This document shows positions 4,071-39,659 of a stretch of 64,000 bases of DNA, piece after piece. The notes below the pieces were generated by a model that did no database searches, was not told the origin of the DNA, and saw nothing but the letters and a program-made list of their open reading frames with translations. Numbering within the stretch: the stretch's first letter is position 1; each line of letters opens with the position of its first letter. The DNA comes from Macrostomum lignano. Its lineage: Eukaryota. A program made the position numbers and the translations under genes. Where the stretch lies: positions 62,001-126,000 of the forward strand of contig NIVC01000471.1 in the NCBI GenBank assembly GCA_002269645.1, given 5' to 3'.

Positions 4071-6694
4071 TTACACCCCCGTAGCCTGCGATAGCAGGTG
4101 GATTAGCTTATACTCGTAGCAATAAAGGATAAACATGAAAGCAAAAAACAAAAGTGGAGTGGGGTGGATGGACGGGTGGGTGGGTATAAAGACTCAGTAA
4201 AATTGTGGGATTCATCAAATCAAGAAAGCTTGAAGCTACATGATAGAAGTCAAGTGCCAATTAGTTAATTGAATCATCGATCAGCAGCTTCATTTAGTGC
4301 AATAATTTCCAAGTATCGGAGAGTGTTTTTCAGGGCTGCTCAAGTGCATTTTGATCCAGATACCGACTCCGAACTAGAGGAGAAGGCTGGCTAACAGCGG
4401 ATGAGGGTAAAGATGAAGAAGAGGGGGACCTGCATCTCCAGCAAAATGAAGACGCCGGAAGCTTACCAAATGATGCTTGGGTGGCACGGGAAGCTGGGCA
4501 GGATCAACGGCCAGATGCAGAGCCCGAATTCTTGGGAATGCCTGGTATGGATCCTGACTTACCGAGGCCAGAGACTGCTGATGACGATCCAGCTGCGTTT
4601 TTCAAGCTGTTTCTGACTGCTGACCTACTGCAACAGCTCTGCGCTTGGACCGATGCGCAGGCGTGGCGCAAATTCGACGAGCTACAAGCATCGATGCCAA
4701 ACTTGCCTCAAAGGTTCTCTGCGTGGAAAGACGTGACCGTGGACGAGATGAAGAATTTTGTCGCCATGTCGCTTTACATGGGAATAGTTACGAGCTCGAG
4801 AAAAAAGTTACGAGTTAGTTACGAGCTCGTAAAAAGCTCGAGATCGCCAACTATTGGAGCAAAGATGATTTCTACGCAACACCTTTCTTCCAACAACTCG
4901 CTCGCCTGACAAGGGACAGGTACTAACAGATCAGTAGCCAGCTGCGCTTCTATGACTGCAAAAACTTCGATGGAAACGACCCGCTAGCAAAGGCAAGACC
5001 ATTTATTACGCTTGTAGCTGAGATATGTCGCAATGTGTACATGCCAGAAAAAAAATTAGTGTCGACGAAGAGCTTGTTCTGTTCAGGGGTCGCGTCATGT
5101 TTCGTCAATATATTCCATACAAGAAAGCGCGATATGGCATCAAATTGTATTGTCTTTGCGAAGCTAGATCCGGTTACGTGAGCAACTTCTTAGTGCACTC
5201 TAGTAGTGCTGAGAATGAGCGATTCGGTCCAGGTCTTGGGTGGGGGTGCTGTCTCTGAGTGAGAAAGTCCTGGTGGAGGCAGTTAGGTACGTATTGGATT
5301 TAGGTTATCACGTCTTCTGCGATAGCTGGTTTGGATCTTATCATATTGCGATGTATCTGCTGCAGCGGAGCACCATGCTGACATGCACAGTTCGCGCCTA
5401 TCGCGTTGTCCCAGATGGCCTTCGTGGTATCCAGGGAAACCAAGCTACATGTTTATGCGCAAAGGAAACGTGCTAGCGTTGAAAATAATTGACAGGAAGA
5501 GCTCGGGCCTAAAGAAAGTTTACTTCCTTGACACGCAAGGCGTAGTCCAACTTCACCCTGTTCACCGAATCGTGCGAAACGAACTGGTCATCCAGCAGAA
5601 GCAACAGACAGTTGTGTCGTGCAACAGATTTATGGGTGGTGTCGACAGGCTGGACTCTGCCTTGCAGCCATACAACCCATGCCGGCGGACTCAGAAGTGG
5701 CCCACAAAGCTCGGCGCGCACCTTTTTCTTGTACTGGCCAGAAATGGCTGGGTTGTGTACCGATCGTGCGGAGGTACACTGGAGTTTTTAAAGTTTCTGG
5801 AGACCATCATCAAGAACTTTATCGACTCCTCTGGACCAGGTCGTGTAAGAACTGCTCGGGCACAGCAGCAGCCAGCAGTGGCTCACCAACAACACTCGCT
5901 GAAGCGCATTGAAGCCACCGAAGCGCAAGCCCGACCAACGAAGCGGTGCAGGCAGTGCTACAAGAACGGCCAGGCCAAGAAAACAGTCTTCTGCTGCGGC
6001 TCCTGTGAAGGCAACCCTGGACTGTGCGCAGCCCCCTGCTTTGCCGACTGGCATACCGCTCAGGTGTAACTTATTTTTTTTAGTTTTCAAAGCCAAAGGC
6101 AGCTCATATTTAATTGACAAACAATATGCGGCATAACTTCGGTTTCCACTCTAAATTATTTTCCGGATTCTTTTAAACTTACAGTCTACAAATGTAAAAG
6201 AAACAAGTAAAAAGTCAATATTGAATCAATGTAATAGTCCAAACTCCAAAGCAGGAAAATGAAGCAGGTTTCTGAATTCCAAATCTGGAAAGGCCGGAAA
6301 ATAATCAGTAACGCAGGTTTAAAAGTATTAAAGTATTAATTTCTGAAAATCAAGAAAATAATTTAGAGCGAGAAACCGAAGCTATACCCAATATGCCATC
6401 TGGTTATAAACAGGTTATGTTATTGTTGTTGTTTAGCTGTTAAACATTGTTTATACGTTATAGCAATTTATCTTCTTGATTTTTACTGTTTCTTATTAAA
6501 AATTACTTCATCAGATAGAAAAACTCGTTGACCGTGATTCACAAATGTTTTCTGTATAAAAAAATAGGCATGGCCTGCTGAGCCGCAAGCTACGGCTATG
6601 CAAACTTATTTTCGAAACAGCATTTAAATGATTCGCAAGCCATAGACCATTAGCTATGGCCTGCAGAGCAGGCCACCCGCATCCTCGGGGTTAA
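4071..6694 (+). mobile_element. piggyBac DNA transposon, degenerate
   Basis: Transposase inside. Right end GGGG-TTAA at 6687-6694. Left end TTAC-ACCCCC-GTAGCCTGC..GCAGG only loosely matches the reverse complement of the right end. Confidence 0.7.
4400..6069 (+). pseudogene. piggyBac (PGBD4-like) transposase, frameshifted
   Basis: Across several frames: FFKLFLT, ISVDEELVLFRGRVMFRQYIPYKKARYGIK, HVFCDSWF, NRFMGGVDRLD, and the C-terminal Cys-rich domain CRQC..CGSC..LC..CFADWH. Confidence 0.92.
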
Positions 6695-15121: not shown

Positions 15122-17535
<2,414 letters not shown>

Positions 17536-23062: not shown

Positions 23063-24356
23063 ATGTTGGTAGAGAATCCAGTGAAAAAAGTTGTGTTGAG
23101 TACCAATTCCATCACATGCAACAAATGCGCCGGTGATCATCAATCTACTGAATGTCCCAAGACTGATGCCCTAAAGTGCGCAAACTGCAATGGCGCACAC
23201 CTGGCTTACTCGCATAAGTGCCCAGTTGCAAAAAAGGCGCACCAACAAGCAAACGCGCGTGAAATTGAACGAGTATCCAACTTAATGCAAGCCAACAACA
23301 AGCAGTATGAAGAAGACTGCTACCGACGACATCTGCCCGAGACTTATCCTGGACTACAACAGTACGCCACTGTAGCTAGGCCACAGTTCGACTCTGCACC
23401 AAGTCTCCGCCCTATGACTGCTGCAATGCCAACCTGCGGCAGTCCAGACGATGGCCTCTGCGTCCCCGAACACATAGTTCCCCTAGGCACTGAAAACAAC
23501 GGAACTGATAATTGGGAGGTTGATCAATATTTAGCTTGGGCTATGGCCGATGATAGCGACCCCGAGTCTAAAGTTTTCGACCTCCCGCTGCTGGCTATTG
23601 GAGGGGTTGTGAACGGTGCCCCTGCTGCTGCCTCCGATTTGACTGCTGCCTCTGCCGCCCTCTTTGAGCTGACCACAGCCGGCCCCGTCTCGAGCAATGC
23701 CTCTGCTGACGCCTCTGCATCGGCTGATGTCCTGTCTGCTGCCGCCTCTGCATCGACTACCTCCAACCGGGGCTCTATATCATCTGCCGCTACGCTCCTC
23801 CTCCTTGGTGATGAGGACGAGGACGTGCCTGGGGAGTTTGCCATGGCTCGCGAGCGCTTTCCACGCATCCTTGCCTCGTTTTTCTGCGGGGATATCGACT
23901 GGCTGAGGTCTCGGCATCCTGGCGGCCTGCTTTCCCAAGACACCTTTATCAGAGCCTTTGATAGGGTTCTCTATACTTTGGTTTCGAGGGGGGCCGGCCT
24001 ACGGGAGGTGCTGGAGGCTGAGAATCTGCACCAGGACTGGTTGATGGGGCGCAATTCGAATGCCTCTGACTCAGAGGCGTACCTGGCCGGTCCTGGAGCG
24101 CGCCCGACTGCGTGGGATGAGCCCGCCGCTATGCAACCCTCTAACTGGGAGGAGCACCTTTCGCTGGTGCGCTATACAGCGTCTCTACGTCTGTGGCGGC
24201 TGGAGGACGATTTAGATTTGGTAAGATATTACATTATATATACATTTCATGTAATCTGTATTTCATATATTCTGTCTATATAGAATGTTTTAATTTTCAC
24301 ATTGCCAGTCATCCGACTACTGCTTCGATAGCGTGGAGGAAGACCCTAGTAATTAG
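23063..24356 (+). CDS. Chimeric ORF: penton-derived start, LINE ORF1-type zinc knuckles, and 'orfY' body. Exons 23063-24220 and 24309-24356
   Basis: CNKCAGDHQSTEC and CANCNGAHLAYSHKCP. The body aligns with 30395-31288. GTAAG donor at 24221 and CAG acceptor at 24308. Confidence 0.6.
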
Positions 24357-24379: not shown

Positions 24380-25570
24380 GCACCCAACGAGCTAAGGACA
24401 CAAATGGAGGTATGTGGTCTCATCTGAAAAGCCACCACGTTGAAGCCCTATACTTGCTGAAAAGAATGGAAAAAGTTGATAGTGAGCAGAAGAAATGGCA
24501 AAATAATGTCATTGCTGAAGCTGAATATATGCTGCCATCTACCAAGATGAGGCTGACACCATCAACTTCATCACCAGCTTTGTCTGCTAGCTCAATAACA
24601 CCAAAGGGCAAGGCCAACTCAAGTTCCACCCCCCAAGGAACACCAGTTACACCACAGCAGTAGCAACAGCCTATATCTGCATCATTTATGCCCCAATTTA
24701 AAATGCCCAGCAGATGACCCAAAGGCTAAAGAGTTAACAAGGGATATTGGTAAGTCTACTACTAGTCTGACCAGTAATTCTTTTTTCTAAAGACAGTCTT
24801 AAAGTACACTTCAAATTGGCTTGTAAAATACCCCCTTTTCCCACCCACCCTCTTCTTATGGCAGAGCTTATTGCGTTCGACAGGGAGCCATTTAGTCAGG
24901 TTGAGCGACTTGGATTCTCGAGGTTCTTGGCGAAGCGTTTCCCACGCTACTCCATTCTATCCGCCGACTACATGGCGAAGGTTGCTGTGCCACAGCTATA
25001 CGATTCTGTTCGCCAATCATTCGAGAGTGTGCTAAAAGATAGTACATCTTTCGCCCTTAGCACAGATGGCTGGACATCAGCTTGTGGTTCATTTAAAGTC
25101 ATAGGGCTTGTTATGCACTTTATTGCTCCAAGTGGAAAGCTGGAGCAGGTAACGCTCTGCTGCTCCCAAGTTCCTGGTTCACCAACAGGCGAATGTATTG
25201 CAGAGGTTGTGAGAAATGTGAGTAAATTTGGAAAACAAAAAGTAAAAAGTAAAAAAAAACTGATATTGATAAATATCAACGATGAATAATTTTGAGATAG
25301 CCACAGAAATATGTTGTTAAAAGATGAGAGTAGCATAAGGAGAGTAGAATAGTGTAAAAGCATCAATGCTTTTTTCTAAAGCATTGTATATTTGGATTAC
25401 GAGTGTACATTTGGAGTTTATTGTAAAAAACTCCAAAAACTCTAAACTTTTACAGGTGTTATCTGACTGGCATCTAATGGATGCAATTGTTTCCGTTATC
25501 ACTGATGATGGACCAAACGTGAAGAAAGCAATCCGACTGCTGGGCCTTGCTAGGCACTCGTGCGTCCTAT
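24380..25570 (+). pseudogene. hAT (ZBED4/Ac-like) transposase with introns, truncated
   Basis: WSHLKSHH; DDPKAKELTRDI|AELIAFDREPFSQVE; FALSTDGWTS; VITDDGPNVKKA; ends at RHSC. Confidence 0.88.
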
Positions 25571-25599: not shown

Positions 25600-28318
25600 T
25601 TGCCTCAGAAGGCAATGATTGCGGGCTAAATTGCTACAATGCTCAGTGCCTTGAAAATCACAAGCGCAAGAATAAGGCTGGTAGATCGCGCTGTGATTCG
25701 GTTCACGTTTGCGGGACGTGCGGCTATGTGGAAGAGCTAAAAGTAGGCCAGGCCCCCGAGCATCAGTGCGGTCACGCCAAGTGTCCAGTCTGCAAGCAGT
25801 ACGACGAAACTGCCACCCACGAGTGCTTTGTCACCCCGCCCAAAGCCAAAGAGTCTAGCGCCCCGTACGTTTACTACGATTTTGAGACGTACGTAGACTT
25901 TGACAAGCAGCACCGGGTACACTTGGTTACGGCAGCTACCTCGTGCGAGTCGTGTCCCAAACTCTTCCCGAGGCCCCGCTGTAGCGCGTGCGGGGGGTTG
26001 CACAGCTCAACTAATTGCATTGCGGGACGCGATTTGGCGCGCGATTTTACTGGCTGTGTCTCCCACAATGACTGCGCTTGCGGGATGCGAGAGTTTGTTT
26101 CGGTTGGGCCGCACTCTATCGATGCCTTTTACTGCTGGCTGACTAGTGTGTTCAAGCAGGGGGCTATTGCTATTGCGCACAATGGCTCCGCGTATGACGC
26201 ATTCCTCCTGCTCGGAGCCCTACTTAACGGACTGGCCAAGAAGAAGCCCCAAGTGATCTTCCAGAATAGCCGCCTAATGTACATGAAGAGCGACAAGATC
26301 ACATTCAAGGAAAGCCTCAACTTCATCCCTATTGGTCTGGCGCAATTCCCAAAGGCGCTTGGTTTGGGCACCCAGCTGACCAAGGGTGATTTCCCGCATG
26401 TGTTTAATCAACCGCAAAATTGGTACTACGTAGGGCCTTACTGTTCGATTGAAATGTACGGCGGGAAGAAAAACAAGCAGCATGACTCCATCGCAGACTG
26501 GCTGGCCAAGCAGGAGGGTCAAGTGTTTAATTTCAACAAGGAATACTTGGACTACTGCCTGCAAGACACTCTAATTTTGCGGGAAGGGTGTCTAAAATAC
26601 GCCCGCCTGATTAAGGACATTTGCGGACTGGACGCATTTGTCCAATCTAACACCATTGCGGGCTTGGCCATGGCTGTTTTCACCACCAAGTTTATGGAGC
26701 CCAACACTCTTGGGGTGATTTCCCGCCGGTCAGATGTGCAGTCGTACAAGGCGCGGTGCTGGCTTACACCTTTGAATGCAACCGAGTTTGGCGGCCGGTT
26801 GCGGACAGCCGACTCTGGCGGCGAGGCTTTCGCCATGGGTCGAAAGGTGGACGGCTTCGACCCAGAGACTAGGACAGTGCTCGAATTCCACGGCTGCTTC
26901 TACCATGGCTGTCCCAAGTGCTTCCCCAACGGCGACGTGCTGCACCCGCTCAAGAACCAGCCAATGCGGGCAATTTATGAAGAGACTGAGCGCTTCACTC
27001 GACTGCTCTCCACGGCCTACAATGTACGTGTCCTGTGGGAGCACGACTACCAGGACGAGGGAGCGCCAGTCCAGCCGCCTATTCGCCTGGAGGAGGCCCT
27101 ATTTAGCGGCCGCACCGAGGCTTTTGTCCCGCACGCCGAGGCCACCGAGACTGTGGAGCTGCGCTATCGGGATGTGGTAAGTTTCTCTTGCACAGTTTAC
27201 TATACTAAATCTATATTCTACTACAACTACCACCACTTTCCCTCTAGGTGTCGCTCTACCCGACTGTCAACAAGTTTGACAAGTACCCTGTCGGGCACCC
27301 GGTTCACCACCCCGAGCCTCATCTACTGGATGAGCAGCAGCTGGCCTGGTACTTTGGCATCGCCGAGGTCTCGATTCTGCCGCCTACCAATCTCCACATC
27401 CCGCTACTGCCCGCCAAGATTAGCAAGAAGCTGGTTTTCGGCCTCTGCCGCGTCTGCATGGAGACCCAGTGCAGCAGCGAGTGTACACACACTGACGCTG
27501 AGAGAATGCTCCGCGGTACATGGTCGACCCCAGAGCTCCACAAGGCCCTGCAGTTGGGTTACAAACTGCAGTCAGTTCTTGCCCTGGCCTATTGGGCCGA
27601 GACTCGGAGCGGGCTGTTTGCAGACTATGTAAACACCTTTTTGAAGCTCAAGGCCGAGTCTAGCGGTTCGCCGGGGATGACTGAGGACGCCAAGGCCGCC
27701 TACATGGCCAGCTTTTTCGAGCGCGAAGGTGTCCGGCTGGAAAAGGTGGAAGAAAATCCTGGCCTGCGCTTTGTTGCCAAGATTTTTCTAAACTCGTAAG
27801 TTGGGGTTTTTCTACTTGCCGTGGGGGGCGTGTTTTTCTACTTACAGTAGCCAGATATACCTACATATTCCCTAAAACTGCAGGCTCTGGGGCAAATTCT
27901 GCCAGCGCGACGACTTGACCTCCACGGAGATTGTGGACAGCTACGAGGCGTGGCTGCAGCGTCTGACGGACCCGTCCATCAAGGTCAAGTCGTGCGAGCC
28001 TGTCGGGGAGAGCTTCATGATGCTCGAATACAAGCCCCGAATTGGTGGTGCTGTCGAGCGGGCCTTCAAGTACGCCAATGTACCAATTGGCGTTTTCACC
28101 ACCTCCCACGCCCGGCTGCGACCATACGAGGCTTTGGAGGGCCTAGGGACCCGAGTCATTTACACTGATACTGATTCGTAAGTAATTTTTCCCCCTGTCT
28201 CTGTCTGTTTCCCCCCTTAACACTATATCCTCCTGCTCCACAGGGTCGTGTATCGGTGCTCTCCCGGCCAGTACGAGCCTCCTGGCGGTTCGAGTTTGGG
28301 GCAGTGGACTGATGAGGC
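25600..28318 (+). pseudogene. Protein-primed DNA polymerase B of Polinton type. Introns at 27177-27247, 27796-27883 and 28178-28243; C-terminus truncated
   Basis: Zn-finger region, ExoI YYDFETY, ExoII AHNGSAYD, ExoIII YCLQD, EFHGCFYHGCPKC insert, GRTE. Spliced motifs YRDV|VSLYP, KIFLNS|LWGKF and YTDTDS|V. Stops after LGQWTDE. Confidence 0.95.
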
Positions 28319-28900
28319 CACAAATTGCAGGTAGGCGCAGGCCACAACCAGAGCTCGCAGCAGGCACCTCTTATCCGTGTTGGTGATGTGGACATAGTGC
28401 TTGGAGAAGGCATGGCGCTCCTCCAGATGCTTGTTCTCTAGGGCACAGCCAACCTGAGGCACCCAGGCATTTAGCAGACGGATAGAAAAGTTGCCCGTCA
28501 ATAGTGGCATCCGACTGCACAATCTTGTCAATCAACGTGCTAAAACAACAACTCTGCTGTCATGCGGGCTGCACGCACCGGGGGAGTATGGGCCGCTTTG
28601 AGCATGTTGTCGCTCTCGAATTTCGCGGCCATAAAGTCTTCCCCCGCCAAATCCTGCTTAAAGACATCGAGCATGTCGGCAAACACCTCCCGCAAATCTT
28701 CGATGTTAGTAATGCGCACCACATACTCGACGCCCTTTGCCCTAAACTTTGGCAGGTCACGTTGATTATCTAGCCGGGCCGTTAAACCTGCAGGGAATGA
28801 ATGGGAGTGTGAGTCAGCCCGGTTCTGTCTGGGGAATGGGGGCTATATAACTCACCCGGTCCGGTAACTGATTCAGGTTGGGCAGGCGGAACAAACGCGT
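28318..28900 (-). pseudogene. N-terminal exons of the same pPolB type, in inverted orientation
   Basis: KIVQSD.. and HITNTDKRCLLRALVVACA resemble the N-D-x-x-C-L-x-R-A-x-V-V motif of Polinton pPolB N-termini. A phase-1 GT-AG intron lies near 28791-28857. Confidence 0.7.
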
Positions 28901-29030
28901 CTGAAAAAACAAGAAAATAAAAAACCAGAAGAATCTGTCAATTCGCGGCACCCCAGGATCAGACTCCAACCGGTTCATTGTTTGTGCTCCTGCATAACCC
29001 CTTGCGCTCAGGCCCTCCTGCCGACACGCG

Positions 29031-29359
29031 TCTGCAATTTTTTTAACCCCAGCCCGCAGCCGTTATCCGGCCTGCTCTTTGTTTGCGCACCCTCCCTACT
29101 CAAACTCGTAAGCCCCCTGTCGCAGCACTCTGAATTCCCGCATGCGCCTGAAGCTGTCAGAGCGCCCACCATTTTTTATCGGTCTGGCTCATTTTTTGCG
29201 CTCACGCATAACCACTCGCGCGCAAGCTCTCCCGCTGAAACGCTCTGCAATTTTTTTAACCCCAGCCCGCAGCTGTTATCCTGCCTGGCTCTTTGCTTGC
29301 GCGCCCTCCCTACTCAAACTCGTAAGCCCCCTGTCGCAGCACTCTGAATTCCTGCATGC
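29031..29359. repeat. About 115-bp direct duplication (29031-29145 and 29244-29359)
   Basis: Two close copies in the putative first pPolB intron. Confidence 0.85.
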
Positions 29360-29741
29360 TCATGCCCCTTGCCAATTCATAGAAGCTCCCTTCTGCAGCA
29401 ACTCAAAACCCGTCTAGATTGATAAACAACCGTCGGAAATTAATTAAAACTTACCATAAAGACGTTGCCTCTTGTCAGCTAGGAAAGCTGTCGATGCTGC
29501 GCTGCGTTTAGTCTTTTTGCACACAGAGAGAGAGAGAGTAGGATTATCTCTCTACCCCTGTTCTGGGGGGTCTAAATATATACTAGAAACCTGCTTAGCT
29601 CGTCTATTATTGGTCAAATCACCAAAAAACCAACCAGAATCACCCAAAATCACCCCTAAAATCACACCCTCCCCACCCTCCATCTGGGGTATATAAAGCG
29701 CTGCACGGCTGTCAGAGAGCTCTCTGCTGCTGCTGCTAATC

Positions 29742-30287
29742 ATGTCTTCTATCGCTCTATACGAAAACTTTGTGGTGCGGAAGCCCACATTTGAAACGGA
29801 GCATGACTTAATTGAAATCCGTCGTCTCTACACCAACGAAGCCGGAGTGTGGAAGGACGGCTTCCCAGCAATCTATTTAAGCGAGGTCGAGTGGAAGAAG
29901 CTCGAAGCTGCACGCCCTGACCTGGAGGCTGCGGTACGTCTTCACGTGGACAAGAGAGTCGTGTTGGGCAACTTCAAGGCGGCAGAAGCTTCACAGGGGA
30001 GGATTCGTTTGCGGCGCAATTGGCTTAATCGGGATCCAAAGTTCAATTGGCGCTACACAATTGAATTCACGCCGGAACTGTGGCGCCGGATGTTTGCCGC
30101 CCGTTTGGGCAAGCTCTTCAAACCCAAGGCCCCACCGCAAGCCAAGCGAGCCAGGACCGAGACCTCTCCGGTAGCCAGGACTGAGGAGGAGGAAGAAAAT
30201 CTCCAGGACATTCTCCAGGTTGTGGGTCTCAAACCCTACCAATCCCCGCCCTGGGAAAATCTGTTTGACGAGAGTCAGCGCTGGTAG
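29742..30287 (+). CDS. PC4-like ssDNA-binding protein, apparently with two tandem domains; intact
   Basis: LIEIRRLYTNEAGVWKDGFPAIYLSEVEWKKLEAARPDLEAAVR aligns by eye with PC4 [53 protein letters not shown] at 29690. Confidence 0.78.
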   Translation: MSSIALYENFVVRKPTFETEHDLIEIRRLYTNEAGVWKDGFPAIYLSEVEWKKLEAARPDLEAAVRLHVDKRVVLGNFKAAEASQGRIRLRRNWLNRDPKFNWRYTIEFTPELWRRMFAARLGKLFKPKAPPQAKRARTETSPVARTEEEEENLQDILQVVGLKPYQSPPWENLFDESQRW

Positions 30288-30394
30288 TTCCCTATTGGCT
30301 CGCGCCACCCCGCGGGGCTCCCTATATAACTATCCAGCCTCTAGAGAGCCAAACCCTAATCCTAGCCCTGATACTATAGTCTGCTGATTCCAAC

Positions 30395-31393
30395 ATGTCC
30401 CGCCGCCGAGCTCTATCCACCCTCTGGGATAAAAACCGCCCATCTGAAGAATTAGCCTCCCTCGACGGTGAAATACCCGAACATATAATCCCCATAGGCA
30501 TAGAAAACGGCGGACTTGACTATCCTGAAAATTGGGGTGCTGATATAGCCTTATCTTGGGCTTTGTGGGCTATTACCTACGATAGCGACACCGGGTCTGA
30601 GATTTTCGACATCCCGTGGGGTAATACCTACGATAGCGACACTGGGTCTGAGATTTTCGACCTCCCACCGCTGACTATCGGAGGGGGTGTGAACGCTGCC
30701 GCTGCCGACTCTGGTGCCTCTGCCGCTGCCGCCCCTGCCACCTCTGCCGCCGATGCCGACTCTGCCGCTGCCGACTCTGGTGTCTCTGCCTCTGCCGCCC
30801 CTGCCACCTCTGCCGCCGATGCCGACTCTGCCGCTGCCGACTCTGGTGTCTCTGCCTCTGCCGCCCCTGCTGCCGCTGCCGACTCTGGTGCTGCCTCCCC
30901 CGGTGTCTCTGCCTCTGCCGCCTCCAGCCAAGCCTCGATATCATCAGCCACCACGATCCTTCTCTTTGGTGATGAGGAAATGAATATGGCCGAGGAGATC
31001 GCTATGGTCCGCGATCGCTTTCCGCGTATTGTGGCCTCCTTTTTTCACCGTGATATCGAGTGGTTGAGGTCTCGCCACCCCGACGGCCTGCCTCCCCAAG
31101 ACACCTTTGTCGAGGCCTTTTATCGGGTTCTCGATACTTTGGTGTCGAGGGGGGCTGACCTACGGGAGGTGTTGGAGGCAGAGACACTACATCAAGATTG
31201 GTTGATGGGGCGCAATTCGCATGCCTCCGACACTGAGGCATATCTGGCCGGTCCGGGAGCGCGCCCTACTGAGTGGGATGCACCTATGGTAAGATATTAC
31301 ACCGTATACACAATTCGTCTTATCATATACAAAGCATATATTCTATCTACATTAATTGTTTTAATTTCCCCATTGCAGTCGGCCGACTACTGA
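30395..31393 (+). CDS. Orphan 'orfY', Ala/Ser-rich with a conserved C-terminal domain. Exons 30395-31288 and 31379-31393
   Basis: ATTGG at 30294 and TATATAA at 30323. Paralogue at 23460-24356 has an intron at the equivalent position. Confidence 0.7.
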   Translation: MSRRRALSTLWDKNRPSEELASLDGEIPEHIIPIGIENGGLDYPENWGADIALSWALWAITYDSDTGSEIFDIPWGNTYDSDTGSEIFDLPPLTIGGGVNAAAADSGASAAAAPATSAADADSAAADSGVSASAAPATSAADADSAAADSGVSASAAPAAAADSGAASPGVSASAASSQASISSATTILLFGDEEMNMAEEIAMVRDRFPRIVASFFHRDIEWLRSRHPDGLPPQDTFVEAFYRVLDTLVSRGADLREVLEAETLHQDWLMGRNSHASDTEAYLAGPGARPTEWDAPMVRYYTVYTIRLIIYKAYILSTLIVLISPLQSADY

Positions 31394-32479
31394 TTCGAGA
31401 CCCTTGAGGAGGAGGCGGTATGAAACAACACTGAGGAGTGGCTGGAGGTTGACTGGGGTTTGCGGTTTTTTCTCCCTGTAAGTGGTTTAGGGGAACCCCG
31501 CAGTATACACTGAGTAGATAGGAATGGGGTTGACTGCGGTTAAAAGACTAATTCAGATGGCTCACCCCTAGGGAGAAAATTGTCTCCCTTACACAGTGTC
31601 CCCTGACTGAGATTCGCCTGTCTGCGCGGCACTTGGGAGCCGCTAAAACCCTATTTGGAAGCCCCCATTTGGGGAGGAAAAATAGCTCTCCTAGGTGAGG
31701 GTCACCTGGTCTGGATGAAAATAGCTCAAGCTGTACATTGGGATCCCCTCGAAACATTACTCAGCCCGCCTTGGTCTCCACTGTCTGGCGCTAGATGCAG
31801 TCGGTCGCTTTGCACTCAGCTGGGGAGGGACTGGCTCTGTTTCTCCGCCCTCACTGTACTTGCCCCTGGGGAGGAATGCCTTCATGCGTGTCTCGAATAT
31901 CCCTTACTAGGTGGGCCAGATATTTTACCTTTGTTTGCACCTACATTATGTCAATATACGCTCAATTTTGCGTACATATGTTGCATATATCACAATTTGT
32001 ACCTTCCGTGTGTGTATTTTAGCCCATGCACCTCCATTAATTTCAATCTAGTGTGTATTTTGCCTATATACGGTTGCATTATACTTGTATCTACTGTGTG
32101 TACGTGTATTTCAACCTATGTTTAATTTTCCTACAGTATACTTGAATCTGCCTACTACACTAACAAAGCGATATGTACCTGCTATTTTGCCTGTTTTACC
32201 GTCTGCCAATATAACAATAATATCATTGTGTGTATTTTGCTATACCTAAGTTTGTACACCTATATGCAATATGCACCAATATGTACATTTTTAATATGCA
32301 CCTGCATTATACCTACTGTGTATTTTTATGTAAATATACATAATTAAATCTACTATAATGCATAATTTTGTGTTTTTATCGCTAACTACACGTATATTGG
32401 GAGAGTGTACACATGTATTGGGCGAGTGTACATGTGTATTGGGCGAGTGTACACCTGTATCACCTGTATTGGACGAGTG

Positions 32480-32830
32480 TACCTTCGGTTTGGGGTGCCT
32501 ATGGCAGGGAGGGTGCCTGCGGTGTACATATAGAGGCGCCCGCGGCAGGGAGGGCGCCTGCGGAGGACGCCTGCGGCGGGGAGGGTTGTCGTACATGTCG
32601 GGAGGGACGCCTGCGGCTGGGAGGGCACCTGCGGCATGTGCACCGTATATGTTGGGAGGGCACCTGCGGCGGGGAGGGCGCCTGCGGCGGGGAGGGCGCC
32701 TTCGAAGGGGAGAGGCGCCTTCGGAGGGCACCTGCGGCATGTGCACCGTACATGTCGAAAGGGCACCTGCGGCGGGGAGGGCGCCTGTGGCATGGGCGCC
32801 TGGATGGCGCTTGGCGCCACGCGCCGAGCA
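32480..32830. repeat. GC-rich tandem repeat (GGCGGGGAGGGCGCCTGC) next to AT-rich TGTAC repeats
   Basis: Directly visible. Confidence 0.8.
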
Positions 32831-35644
32831 CCTACCAATGAGAGGTGAGGTAGGTTGACACCCACCCCACCTCCAAAACCGATGGATCTGGCAGTCCTTA
32901 GTAGTTGTTTCTCTTCATAATTTTATGCTATGCCGATTGCTACATATACATGCATTAAATTGCATGATGATGATATGAATAATCAATAAATTATGCATTG
33001 CTCTAATTAATAATTCAACAGTAGGATTATAACTTGTCTATAACAAATGTTTTATTAGAAATTTCTGCCATTTACAAATTGCAATGTGTTACTAATTTTT
33101 CGTAATAAAGAGGCAATACACCTAGTTAAAAGGAGCACTCAGTAGGCAAAGGCTAGGTCAGATCTTGGGTCTGGGAGGCAGCACGCTTGTTTTACTGGGG
33201 AATAGGGATGGGCAGTTTGGGGAGGGAGGAGCTGTACACTCTTTTTAGATGAAAGGGGAGAGAGGGAAGATTGCACATCTGACATCTTTAAATGAACAAG
33301 GCAGACTCAGTTGCTATTGCTATCAACTGTTGTATAGTGTTTCTTGTTTTGTATTTTGTTTTAACATTTTGTTCATAAAAACATTTTTAAATGTTTTTTG
33401 TACATCAATTGAACATACAATATGTGAATACGTCATTTTATACGTCTACTGCCACGCCAGACATCTACGTCAGACACCGATACGCCGGCACAGTGGCGCA
33501 CAATTGGCATAGCTATTGTGTTACGCCGAATGTTATACGCCAAGCATATTTTCAGGTCTACTGTACGCCAGAATTTTCTGGCGTATATGTAAGATTCGGG
33601 AGTGAGGGACTATGATTGGCGCTAAGGCCTAATAGCAATTGCCAGAACAGGGCAGTCAAGCATAAGTTGTTCTTTGTCGCTGTATATTAGCTCGTATATG
33701 TAGTAATTTTACTAAAAATGGCACAAAATTATTAACAAAATTTAAGCAATAGTACATAGTAACAATAAGCATAATAAAGCAACTTAGCAAAGCAAGGCAA
33801 TATATTGAACCACTTAATAAGAAAAAACAGGATAAACAGGACAATAGGATAAAGAATACTATTAAAATGATAACTACAATACAAGAAATTACTACTACTT
33901 CACAAATTAATTTGATTTAATTGTCAGGACAATTCAGCAAATGATATATAAATATATAATATAATAATACATTCAAAAGATAGGCATTATTTATTAGGCA
34001 ATAAGAAAATAATAAGAAAAATGCAATAAAATTTGACTTTTGAAATTTGGGTTGGGAGCCAAAATATGAAAATAAAGCTATTGAAATTTGAATACTGGAC
34101 ACTGGTTAGGTTATTCTGATTCAAAACTGGTATTGGCGAAATTCCGGTATTGAATATCGGGATCCCAGTTTAGGGCAAGTCCAGTATTTTAGCATCCATA
34201 GACATGAGCCACATCTCCCAAAGAGATATAGCTTTTTATAAAAACCAAGTTTACAAGTTCTTAAATCTTCTACATACTAAATCTTCAATGTAAAAATATT
34301 TAATTTGTACTGCAGAAATATTTTATTACATATAATAATACAAGTGTGCTATATACTGATTATATTGCCCTGCAACTTATAATATTTAGCATAGAATATT
34401 AAATAAAACATTGTAACAACTTACGGACCTACTTGCTAGGAGTTACCGGTTTCAAAAAGTATTGGGTATGGGGACGGGCGCTCCAATATACAAACTGAGA
34501 CGAAAGGCCTGAGGGCCATTCGAGTCTGGCAAGTTGGCTGTCTGTCTGACTGAATCAGCGGTATATACTCATGTTCGACCCCCGCCCCTCCCCTTTCGTG
34601 CAGGCCGCGGGGGGTAAGGGAGAGAAAGGGAGGCAGGCAGTTAATGTACGGCCCAGCCATTGGACAAGCGGTTGGAAATCGAGGGAGTTGACAAACCCAG
34701 TTTTAGGGTGAGTGAGGAGAGAAGGCTAGCTGCGTGCACGTGCATACATACGATCGGTCGGTCGGTCGAGAGATATCGATCGGTTCTGTTTTGTAGGCCA
34801 TGTAGGGCCAGCTTGAATACGGTTCCCAATTCTGGGTTAAGGGCCAGACAAAGAATCCAATTCATGGGAGTCATGGCTTATGGCTGCCGGGAGGGGAGGG
34901 AGAGAAGAAAAGAAGAGGAAAGAGCTGAGACCGTGAGAGACGCAGAGCGGACCGAATTGCTATTGGGATAGGGAAGTTTAAGGACCCGAGGCCCCGAAGG
35001 CCAAACCGGATAGACAGGATTCGCGCTTCGCGGGCCTTGAAGCCTTTGATTATACAAAGCCTGCTTCGCATAGCATCATGGACGACTTTAATAATCAATA
35101 GCAATAAAATCTAGGAGTTCATGTTCGCACACAGGCACACAGCACCGGGAGAGGTGAATCATCCCAGTTCGCGTCATGGGCAAAGGGCCATAATTCTCAT
35201 GAAGAGAGATCATTAGGACTTAAAATTGAAAAGGACCGCTGTAAAAGTTGGAAGTCAAAACTTAACAAGCGACTGCTTGAGTAGAACGACACTAACGACA
35301 TAAACGACACTTAGTAGTCCATGACTTAAACTTAAAATTTCAACATCTTTAAGAATTAGTTGAAACAGCACATCACAAATTGGTTTGGGAAAATCAGACC
35401 ACATCAAAACTACATGGGAATTGTAAACCAGCTTTTTTCACACACAATTTGAAAATTTAAGAAATTCCGGGCGGTACAATTTGTCGAGAATCCCGGGATT
35501 TTTTAAGTCGGGGATATCCCAATCCCGAAAATCCCGGGATTGGCAAAACTCGGGATTTTTTATTCCCCAGTTATGACTCATGGAATGGAATTTGTCATTC
35601 CGTGCGGCAGACCAAATCTGCACCTAATGGTATAGGGTCTAGCT

Positions 35645-38450: not shown

Positions 38451-38996
38451 TCAAGCGTGAGCTTTCAGCTGGTGCCTCCTCTGGTCAGCCCTAGACTTGA
38501 ATCGATGCTCGCACAGCTGACAGCCGAACGGCCTAGTTCGTGTGTGCACCATTTCGTGCAGGCGATAATGATCGCGACGATGAAATCGCTTGTTGCAGTA
38601 GCCGCACTGAAACGGTTTATCAGCCGAGTGAATTTTCCTGTGCCTACACAGAGCTGACAGCACCTTAAAATCGGCGCGGCAGTGGTCGCATTTAAAAAGC
38701 CGAACCTCGGAGTGAGTAAAGCTGTGAGTATAGAGAAGATGCTTATTCGTAAAGCTTTGATCGCAATGGGTGCAATGAAAACGCTGCTTAGAGCTCCGAA
38801 TGTCGGGTTGCTGCGGCTCGGAGGTCTCACTCCTAGCCACAAAAGTAGAGTCCATCTGCAGCCCATGCCTCTGAACGTGCCGAAAGTATCTGCACTTTGA
38901 CTGTGAAGACAGGCTAAATCTTAGGCCGCAAATAGCGCAGCTGAATGAGCTGATCAACTGCTGAATATTACTATTATCCTCTGCAGACTCGGACAT
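38451..38996 (-). CDS. C2H2 zinc-finger protein (one isolated plus four clustered fingers)
   Basis: CxxC..HxxxH repeats with linkers HSADKPF and HTRTRPF. Polypyrimidine-CAG acceptor just before the ATG. Confidence 0.92.
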   Translation of the reverse strand: MSESAEDNSNIQQLISSFSCAICGLRFSLSSQSKCRYFRHVQRHGLQMDSTFVARSETSEPQQPDIRSSKQRFHCTHCDQSFTNKHLLYTHSFTHSEVRLFKCDHCRADFKVLSALCRHRKIHSADKPFQCGYCNKRFHRRDHYRLHEMVHTRTRPFGCQLCEHRFKSRADQRRHQLKAHA

Positions 38997-39659
38997 TTTC
39001 TGGAAAGACAAGAAAAACTGCATTTATGTTTTTTTATTCATCGATAGATCTAGACTAACAACTTGATTAAAAATAGTGAAAAAATCTGCAGAAAGGAGGT
39101 GGACGGCTTTGTGAATCTGTATCTGATCAAGAGGAAGAAAATCCACTTCTTTGGTCATGCTGTGAGAAGTGATGGAGTGCTGAAGGCTGTCTGTCGCTGA
39201 AGGTTGTGTTGAGGGATGAATCAACAATAGTCGTCGATTTTATCTTCTAGGTCTTGATACTAAGAATCAAGAGGCATGTAGTCAAATTCTATAAGATTAA
39301 TATGAGCTAAAATATATACTCGTATTTCCTTCGAGGCCCCGACTATCATAACTGTTTGTCAATAGTAAGGCATGAAATTTCCATAGACGCTCCATAGTAA
39401 GTCAAAAAATGTTGTAAGATATTTTGCTTTATAATATTATTGTAAGATACAGGATACAAGTAATATTAAAAAACTTTCTAGAATAGAGAACAGTGGTAAA
39501 CGGAAAATGGAGTAAATTTTTGCTAAATTAAGACTTGAGGCAAGCATTGATCTTATCTCATTAGCTGGGGTGCCTCGCAGAATGGCAGGGCAATGCCTGT
39601 CTAAGCATGTTTTGGCCAACTCTGGCCTCTCTATTTCGCCATCCTTCAGGTCCTTTGAA

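Follow-up and report, generated by a model that had tools for sequence, protein, structure and literature searches.

Inteins in B-family DNA polymerases occupy sites I and II in motifs A and B. Three PolB sites (I–III) have been described for these inteins, all at the active site (PMC549080), and a preference for conserved sites has been found for inteins and group I introns but not for spliceosomal introns (PMC2814812). Spliceosomal homing introns (shintrons), some of them with VSR-like nucleases, have been reported in mirusviruses (PMC12768974), and in collaborative homing a free-standing nuclease acts together with an empty intron (PMC11296320). Among Polinton-type elements, whose core features were taken for comparison from PMC5718144, the vertebrate Mavericks are reported to be intron-free (PMC8097293), pPolB2 Polintons/Mavericks bearing a VSR insert are described among marine nematode and mollusc elements (10.1101/2023.08.22.554363), and introners are described in dinoflagellate Polinton-like elements (10.1101/2025.03.18.643946).

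The window analysed here is a 64,000 nt stretch of a Macrostomum lignano contig (NIVC01000471.1, positions 62,001–126,000), and it contains a copy of a protein-primed family B polymerase (pPolB) gene with one short intron in each of the catalytic motifs A, B and C (Table 1). The PF03175 polymerase with its VSR-like insert, and the long inverted repeats and 6 bp duplications of its element, resemble those of the nematode and mollusc pPolB2 Polintons/Mavericks, whereas the six introns of the gene set it apart from the vertebrate Mavericks, reported as intron-free (PMC8097293). The shintrons are likewise GT-AG introns that recur at fixed sites in core genes of nuclear DNA viruses, but they have nuclease genes and favour the virion genes of protist viruses, whereas the flatworm introns are empty, 53–89 nt long, and lie in the polymerase of an animal element. 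PolB inteins and group I introns also sit at the polymerase active site or at conserved sites, and the flatworm motif C intron is only 8 nt downstream of the YGD/TDS intein site (here and below a slash marks a junction); the flatworm introns differ in being removed at the RNA level, presumably by the spliceosome, in having no splicing domain, ribozyme or nuclease, and in exact positions that vary between lineages. The dinoflagellate introners share with them that they are spliceosomal introns in Polinton-like elements, but are described as young, repeated and transposon-derived, whereas the flatworm introns are old, unique in sequence and associated with motifs.

Table 1. Features of the pPolB gene copy and of its displaced element pieces in the window (window coordinates).
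Feature	Coordinates	Strand	Evidence or remarks
Long pPolB exon, from the end of the terminal-protein region through the exonuclease domain and VSR-like insert to the first half of motif A	25612..27176	+	PF03175, E 2.5e-14
VSR-like nuclease insert of pPolB2 (bounds approximate)	26791..27078	+	DGF...FHGCFYHGC motif in translation
Intron, motif A	27177..27247	+	71 nt, phase 0; joint in runs X1, X3, X5
Exon, motif A to motif B	27248..27795	+	PF03175, E 1.1e-12; 548 nt in 22/27 copies
Intron, motif B	27796..27883	+	88 nt, phase 2; joint in X1, X3, X5
Exon, motif B to motif C	27884..28177	+	294 nt in 26/27 copies; joined to both neighbours in one X5 contig
Intron, motif C	28178..28243	+	66 nt, phase 2; joint in X5
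Last pPolB exon, truncated in window copy	28244..28317	+	Sister copies continue ~110 codons without further intron
Inverted 5' piece of same pPolB gene	28316..28943	-	87% match to sister copies, opposite strand
N-terminal intron 2 (68 nt), outside catalytic motifs	28788..28855	-	Predicted: GTGAGT donor, CAG acceptor; position shared with sister copies and with family B
45-nt mini-exon of N-terminal leader	28856..28900	-	
N-terminal intron 1 (554 nt), outside catalytic motifs	28901..29454	-	Predicted from sister copies; donor and acceptor located
Element left arm, inverted: first pPolB exon, then small divergent ORFs (one weakly PC4-like)	29436..31582	-	72-85% match to sister copies
Outer end of terminal inverted repeat	32775..32905	-	5'-ACTAC terminus
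Second displaced left-arm piece	23463..24343	-	85% match to sister copies

Three short GT-AG introns in motifs A, B and C had been predicted in the first-pass annotation of this DNA, and they are confirmed, with the exact coordinates of Table 1. A purpose-written spliced aligner, unguided and given no hint of the intron places, recovered the same three with each of four intronless reference proteins. The motif A intron falls between codons (YRDV/VSLYP), and those in motif B (KIFLNS) and motif C (DTDS) both cut a serine codon as TC/G, with GTAAG donors, as had been noted; all three donors read GTAAGT in full, with a YAG acceptor. That both serine codons are split TC/G is no surprise, since at these motifs the intronless relatives mostly use serine codons of the TCN family (61/90 at motif B and 74/82 at motif C). 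With GT-AG ends, a GTRAGT donor and a pyrimidine-rich YAG acceptor the three fit the U2 type, and they are genuine spliceosomal introns of host type, presumably removed by the host spliceosome. No Rfam family of self-splicing group I or II introns matches at E up to 1 over 27000–28400, and the introns are also too short for these; an intein reading is ruled out, the inserts containing frame breaks or stops and being freely variable in length. Additional in-frame intron candidates at 25889–26159 were dropped as reference-dependent, having appeared with three of the four references in three different places. Neither an intron nor a splice joint in the aligned contigs was found in 25612–27176, and the earlier statement that the upstream exonuclease region is intron-free stands for this exon but not for the whole gene, which has three further N-terminal introns. 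The VSR-like insert within this exon resembles the VSR insert of the pPolB2 elements (10.1101/2023.08.22.554363) and taken alone has no Pfam match.

Contigs from 4 of 24 listed runs, none of them catalogued as RNA and their type (RNA or DNA) therefore guessed, were aligned to 25600–28340 at 85% likeness. Runs X1, X3 and X5 (guessed to be RNA, from two studies) have GT-AG joints omitting the 71 nt and 88 nt introns, although those in X1 and X3 rest on short sides (20–27 nt); X5 has a joint omitting the 66 nt intron too, and one 1161-nt contig of that run joins exons over all three. In X1 and X3 the motif C intron is represented by loose contig ends that read into the next exon, and the DNA-like run X15 has no joint at any of the three. 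The RNA check of the junctions that had been suggested thus supports all three in X5 and two in X1 and X3, subject to the guessed run types. The spliced contigs have the letters of the major subfamily and extend past 28317, and the transcripts therefore derive from other copies and not from the truncated copy in the window. In X1 and X3 contigs that retain introns accompany the spliced ones and, since unspliced forms cannot yield active enzyme, one could imagine a regulatory switch, the introns having been favoured by selection because they tie the activity of the polymerase to regulated splicing in the host. We consider this very improbable: the intron-holding contigs may be pre-mRNA or DNA, the splice sites are strong consensus sequences, and the only alternative product seen is one unsupported, non-canonical joint in X3. 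The polymerase is strictly dependent on splicing, as was claimed, but no regulated switch was seen, and motif placement adds nothing to this dependence because an intron that breaks the frame anywhere upstream of motif C would have the same effect.

A DNA search of the M. lignano genome gave at least 47 matches (with 40 of 95 candidates scored), and 30 loci of the family to which the window copy belongs (family A) were examined. All three sites are kept in these copies, with GT donors in 30/30, 30/30 and 29/30 (introns 1, 2 and 3; one GC) and AG acceptors in 30/30 for each, and with intron lengths of 53–89, 67–89 and 65–75 nt in which all three frames are represented. Of the 27 copies in the major subfamily, 22, 26 and 25 have exons of unaltered length. 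The window copy has diverged from the major subfamily by 5–10% in exons and 19–42% in introns; of its codon differences 127 are synonymous and 36 non-synonymous, and the pPolB exons are under purifying selection. No intronless family A copy was seen, there being among 125 protein matches none of at least 90% to exon 2 with an open frame longer than 456 aa. UniRef contains a protein, labelled Macrostomum lignano, that matches exon 2 at 99% identity; its gene model uses the same junctions. A sister family (family B, ~69% protein identity) has the motif A intron in eight of nine aligned loci and the motif B and motif C introns in all nine (one motif C donor was shifted by the aligner), and has introns at all six family A positions with little sequence similarity to those of family A; the six-intron layout is therefore older than the split of the two families. 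Family B, at first thought to have no motif A intron (an 867-aa open frame), contains an in-frame intron of 81 nt there. In one family B copy a 2.2-kb insertion with short inverted ends (L047:7225-9470) lies inside the motif C intron; it was considered as a long intron with a nuclease and rejected, showing no nuclease-like ORF and being by its appearance a transposon insertion.

The three additional introns of the complete gene, seen in sister copies, are in its poorly conserved N-terminal part, and two of them are visible on the minus strand of the window, inverted. The window copy is broken: it begins at 25612, where a 90% match to sister copies starts and the 5' part is missing, and ends at 28317, and the 5' part and left arm lie inverted at 28316–32905, with a part of the gene missing between and only one element end kept. 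This arrangement is common to two other loci. The window segment 20176–35217 recurs at ~97% identity on contigs C157 and C513 and, because copy and flanks recur together, the rearranged copy represents a single insertion inside a duplicated segment. Within the first N-terminal intron of the window copy there is a 175-bp direct repeat (89% identical, 28972–29359). The sequence abutting the polymerase at 25612 (24771–25560) has no Pfam match and contains what we take, by eye, to be an intron-split fragment of a hAT-type transposase; elsewhere in the window (4355–6066, 15198–17251 and 38454–39023) are PiggyBac-like transposase pieces, a RecQ helicase gene and a C2H2 zinc-finger ORF.

The sister copies are elements of 8.8–9.5 kb, within the 8.8–9.7 kb of the elements examined, with terminal inverted repeats of 0.9–1.4 kb and 5'-ACTAC ends, and 6-bp target duplications flank three copies (two of family A, one of family B). 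Their gene content is pPolB (PF03175, protein-primed family B) and a few small ORFs, one of which, in a sister copy, is weakly PC4-like at a score under the cut-off (PF02229, E 0.034). Examples of these compact, polymerase-only families are C1713:173109-182614 and C2757 (L045). Two integrases of the same genome gave no tblastn match at E 0.1 in four elements, a search that a distant or intron-split integrase could escape, and the integrase behind the 6-bp duplications of both families was not found in the elements; queries for capsid, ATPase, protease and penton from the genome's own canonical Polintons likewise gave no match in the compact elements. The pPolB element is thus a reduced, likely non-autonomous element of Polinton type rather than a full Polinton. 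The canonical Polintons of this genome differ in size (15–18 kb), in their 5'-AGTAG ends, and in having unbroken polymerase motifs (all three in C2068; motif B in C2696), and a decayed pPolB2 at C234 also has all three motifs unbroken; the introns are therefore a property of this lineage and are not imposed on every Polinton of the host.

Conservation was scored by Jensen-Shannon and identity measures on an alignment of 38 full-length representative proteins, and the three motif junctions fall in the top 6%, 1–3% and <0.5% of conservation windows. Three random sites in the exonuclease–polymerase region score as high with p 2.4e-4 (Jensen-Shannon) and 3.5e-4 (identity); the values are 8e-4 and 1.4e-3 for the polymerase domain only, and 3.5e-4 and 8.7e-4 with dinucleotide-matched random sites. 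A proto-splice bias finds no support, since conserved junctions show no enrichment of MAG/R sites: of 607 such sites, 33 fall in the top 10%. Placement in motifs is in excess of chance within the exonuclease–polymerase region, and the permutation of intron position against conservation that had been suggested gives p 2.4e-4 to 1.4e-3 for the three introns. For the gene as a whole the proposal of motif-specific placement fares less well: only three of six introns are in motifs, and the summed score over all six is not significant (p 0.15 and 0.10).

This null result lends something to the view that introns were gained at random and that readers and aligners notice those in motifs, as do the dropping of five weak or spurious calls in variable regions, the reliance on the eye for ORF-level cases, and the choice of this gene for its pattern, which makes the p-values for the flatworm gene post hoc; independent cases therefore weigh more. 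We nonetheless think chance with ascertainment quite unlikely, as the exon structure over ~870 codons is fixed by four references and by aligned contigs with no other intron, at least three of six introns fall in the top 6% with p 0.003–0.004, sites pooled at the DNA level give p 2e-4 (seven sites) or 0.006 (ten, including the three N-terminal ones), and the pattern is repeated in independent lineages. A filter on retention, by which random gain is followed by the persistence of motif introns, where nothing but exact removal is tolerated, and by the loss through sloppy deletion of those in tolerant regions, is also unlikely. It predicts that loops should be free of introns but not that introns should crowd into the few most conserved percent of columns, and most of the folded polymerase domain is probably just as intolerant of sloppy deletion; moreover, three introns in the least conserved, N-terminal part of the gene have been kept in both families, and the host Pol alpha, delta and zeta genes (one locus each) have several introns, yet none of their nine motif instances is split.

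A map of introns across pPolB homologues, as had been recommended, suggests that motif introns recur at positions a few bases apart. Among 92 viral and metagenome loci, scanned with two patterns of which one needed an unbroken motif B, three have convincing introns (L165, L161 and L125). The L165 introns are in Exo II (phase 0), in a stretch reading PxxG, in the VSR motif (phase 1) and, at phase 2, in motif A, the last 5 nt from the flatworm site; one of them is at a poorly conserved junction, and the four sites together give p ~0.035. L161 has the PxxG and motif A introns in common with L165, and L125 the VSR one. Five further in-frame calls (L139, L155, L157 and two in L163) were dropped for their weak donors. 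By eye, a packaging-ATPase-like ORF (L165:4360-4872) follows the intron-bearing pPolB of L165 and suggests a full Polinton. In IMG/VR a protein scan with P0065 found nothing, and two junction-type DNA patterns gave 26 loci, none of them pPolB.

Protein ORF calls provide a wider but less direct sample. Near P0013, where the named members are Porites gene models, 116 of 120 calls leave homology directly after the motif B asparagine, a share inflated by a query that contained read-through residues and from which a motif B intron is only inferred; the Porites-like calls read on into a pyrimidine-rich stretch, and all three possible frames fit a phase 2 intron in an AGY serine codon. The suggestion that such genes are hidden from ORF-based surveys is borne out by these breaks, biased as the query was, but UniRef already has spliced models (P0001). 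Cluster representatives at 50% identity (149) were classed by eye in a search blind to introns between motifs A and B, and 62 of them end early. Donor-like breaks or an in-frame insert were recognised by eye in 15 of the 149, at five codon sites of which four are in motifs B or C: eight at the motif B serine (phases 1 and 2), three at the following glycine, three in motif C and one at KxRG. These five sites, called by eye as they are, give p 4e-5. The remaining early-ending representatives are apparent contig ends, frameshifts, chimeras or unclear, and in no representative are two motifs set apart by a long insert that keeps the frame. On a FastTree phylogeny (171 rows, ~187 columns) the rows marked for introns lie in scattered places; its backbone is weakly supported, and introns may be hidden in those unmarked rows that are spliced gene models.

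Judged from these sequences, motifs A, B and C, Exo II and the VSR motif look like recurrent intron hot spots, and introns appear to have entered a given motif more than once, at bases slightly apart, as read in DNA for three contigs and otherwise from ORF read-through; a single ancient motif B intron followed by many losses is a possible alternative history. That the same motif B phase 2 site occurs in distant branches, and that the flatworm genome contains several Polinton families, would also be expected if introns moved without any nuclease, by gene conversion between divergent co-resident families that takes place only where the flanks are conserved. Such recombination is distinctly unlikely to be the explanation, as unbiased conversion should remove introns as readily as it adds them, the flatworm serine codons are split TC/G whereas those of the Porites-like calls are probably split AG/Y, and from one lineage to another the sites in a motif are displaced by a few bases.

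We propose, with a probability of roughly 0.45, that the three motif introns were placed by homing-type nuclease pressure on conserved motif DNA, the nuclease being inferred. Conserved motif DNA would be the target of homing-type nucleases, and an intron inside a motif would shield its own element from cutting and could be copied into cut, intronless relatives. The nuclease may once have been encoded inside the introns and since lost, the introns having then resembled the spliceosomal homing introns of mirusviruses, or it may have been supplied from outside the intron as in collaborative homing, for which the VSR-like insert of the polymerase itself is a candidate; the introns of today would be the plain 53–89 nt sequences that the host spliceosome removes. 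That positions are scattered inside a motif is consistent with selection for breaking up a short target. No nuclease ORF or remnant was found in introns at these sites, which are 53–124 nt in all DNA examined save for the 2.2-kb L047 insertion, and a nuclease gene within an intron, the mark of a shintron, is absent from the 30 family A and nine family B loci. Two further points count against nuclease pressure: five or more motifs would need several nuclease specificities, and three of the six flatworm introns lie in unconserved N-terminal sequence. A broader reading, which we offer only tentatively, is that in animal pPolB2 Polintons empty spliceosomal introns act in an intein-like manner, arising and spreading in motifs as immunity alleles against element-borne nucleases that cut the catalytic-motif DNA of rivals, and that the two flatworm families are the fully shielded end state, compact polymerase-only elements that borrow an integrase in trans.

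The sequences of the present-day introns largely refute an origin by transfer from the host's B-family polymerase genes or by insertion of an introner, for which the dinoflagellate elements would be a precedent (10.1101/2025.03.18.643946). The motifs of host Pol alpha, delta and zeta are intron-free in the nine instances considered above, intron 1 (the one searched genome-wide) matches only its own three copies, and only 2 of 45 intron pairs have a shuffle p <0.05. Even allowing for an ancient introner that has since decayed, we regard this origin as extremely doubtful.

No published report of motif-placed introns in a Polinton pPolB, or of these flatworm elements, was found in the open-access literature searched. 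If true, the repeated gain of spliceosomal introns in catalytic motifs by virus-like elements of animals would be a clear exception to the pattern described for spliceosomal introns (PMC2814812), and would offer both a tractable place to test how such introns originate and spread and a link to the mirusvirus homing introns. In surveys based on ORFs these polymerases are cut short at motif B or C and functioning lineages would count as broken, and intron-bearing Polintons are therefore likely to be undercounted.

Several other elements of this genome are of related types. Those at C625:278.5-287.8 kb (L208) and on C436, C2536, C2243, C660, C1944 and C1300 (L207, L209–L213) are 6–9 kb long, are nearly entire palindromes, and have ACTAC ends and 6-bp target duplications as in the pPolB elements; they are likely non-autonomous foldback passengers. 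A second genome segment, with capsid and integrase genes and sharing these ends, was considered and is not supported among eight pPolB-less elements with ACTAC ends: six align to the L208 palindrome type (L208–L213), L207 has frames mirrored likewise, L206 could not be assigned, and translation of three of them revealed no long ORF. The capsid-bearing Polintons examined have ends that differ from those of the pPolB elements. There are at least two families of canonical 15–18 kb Polintons with integrase, capsid and ATPase (C2068, C2696, C67, C2232 and C1101; L214, L216, L221–L235), and one of these families has a phospholipase-A2-like N-terminus on its integrase, an Eco47II-like nuclease ORF and an ORF with an F5/8 type C domain.
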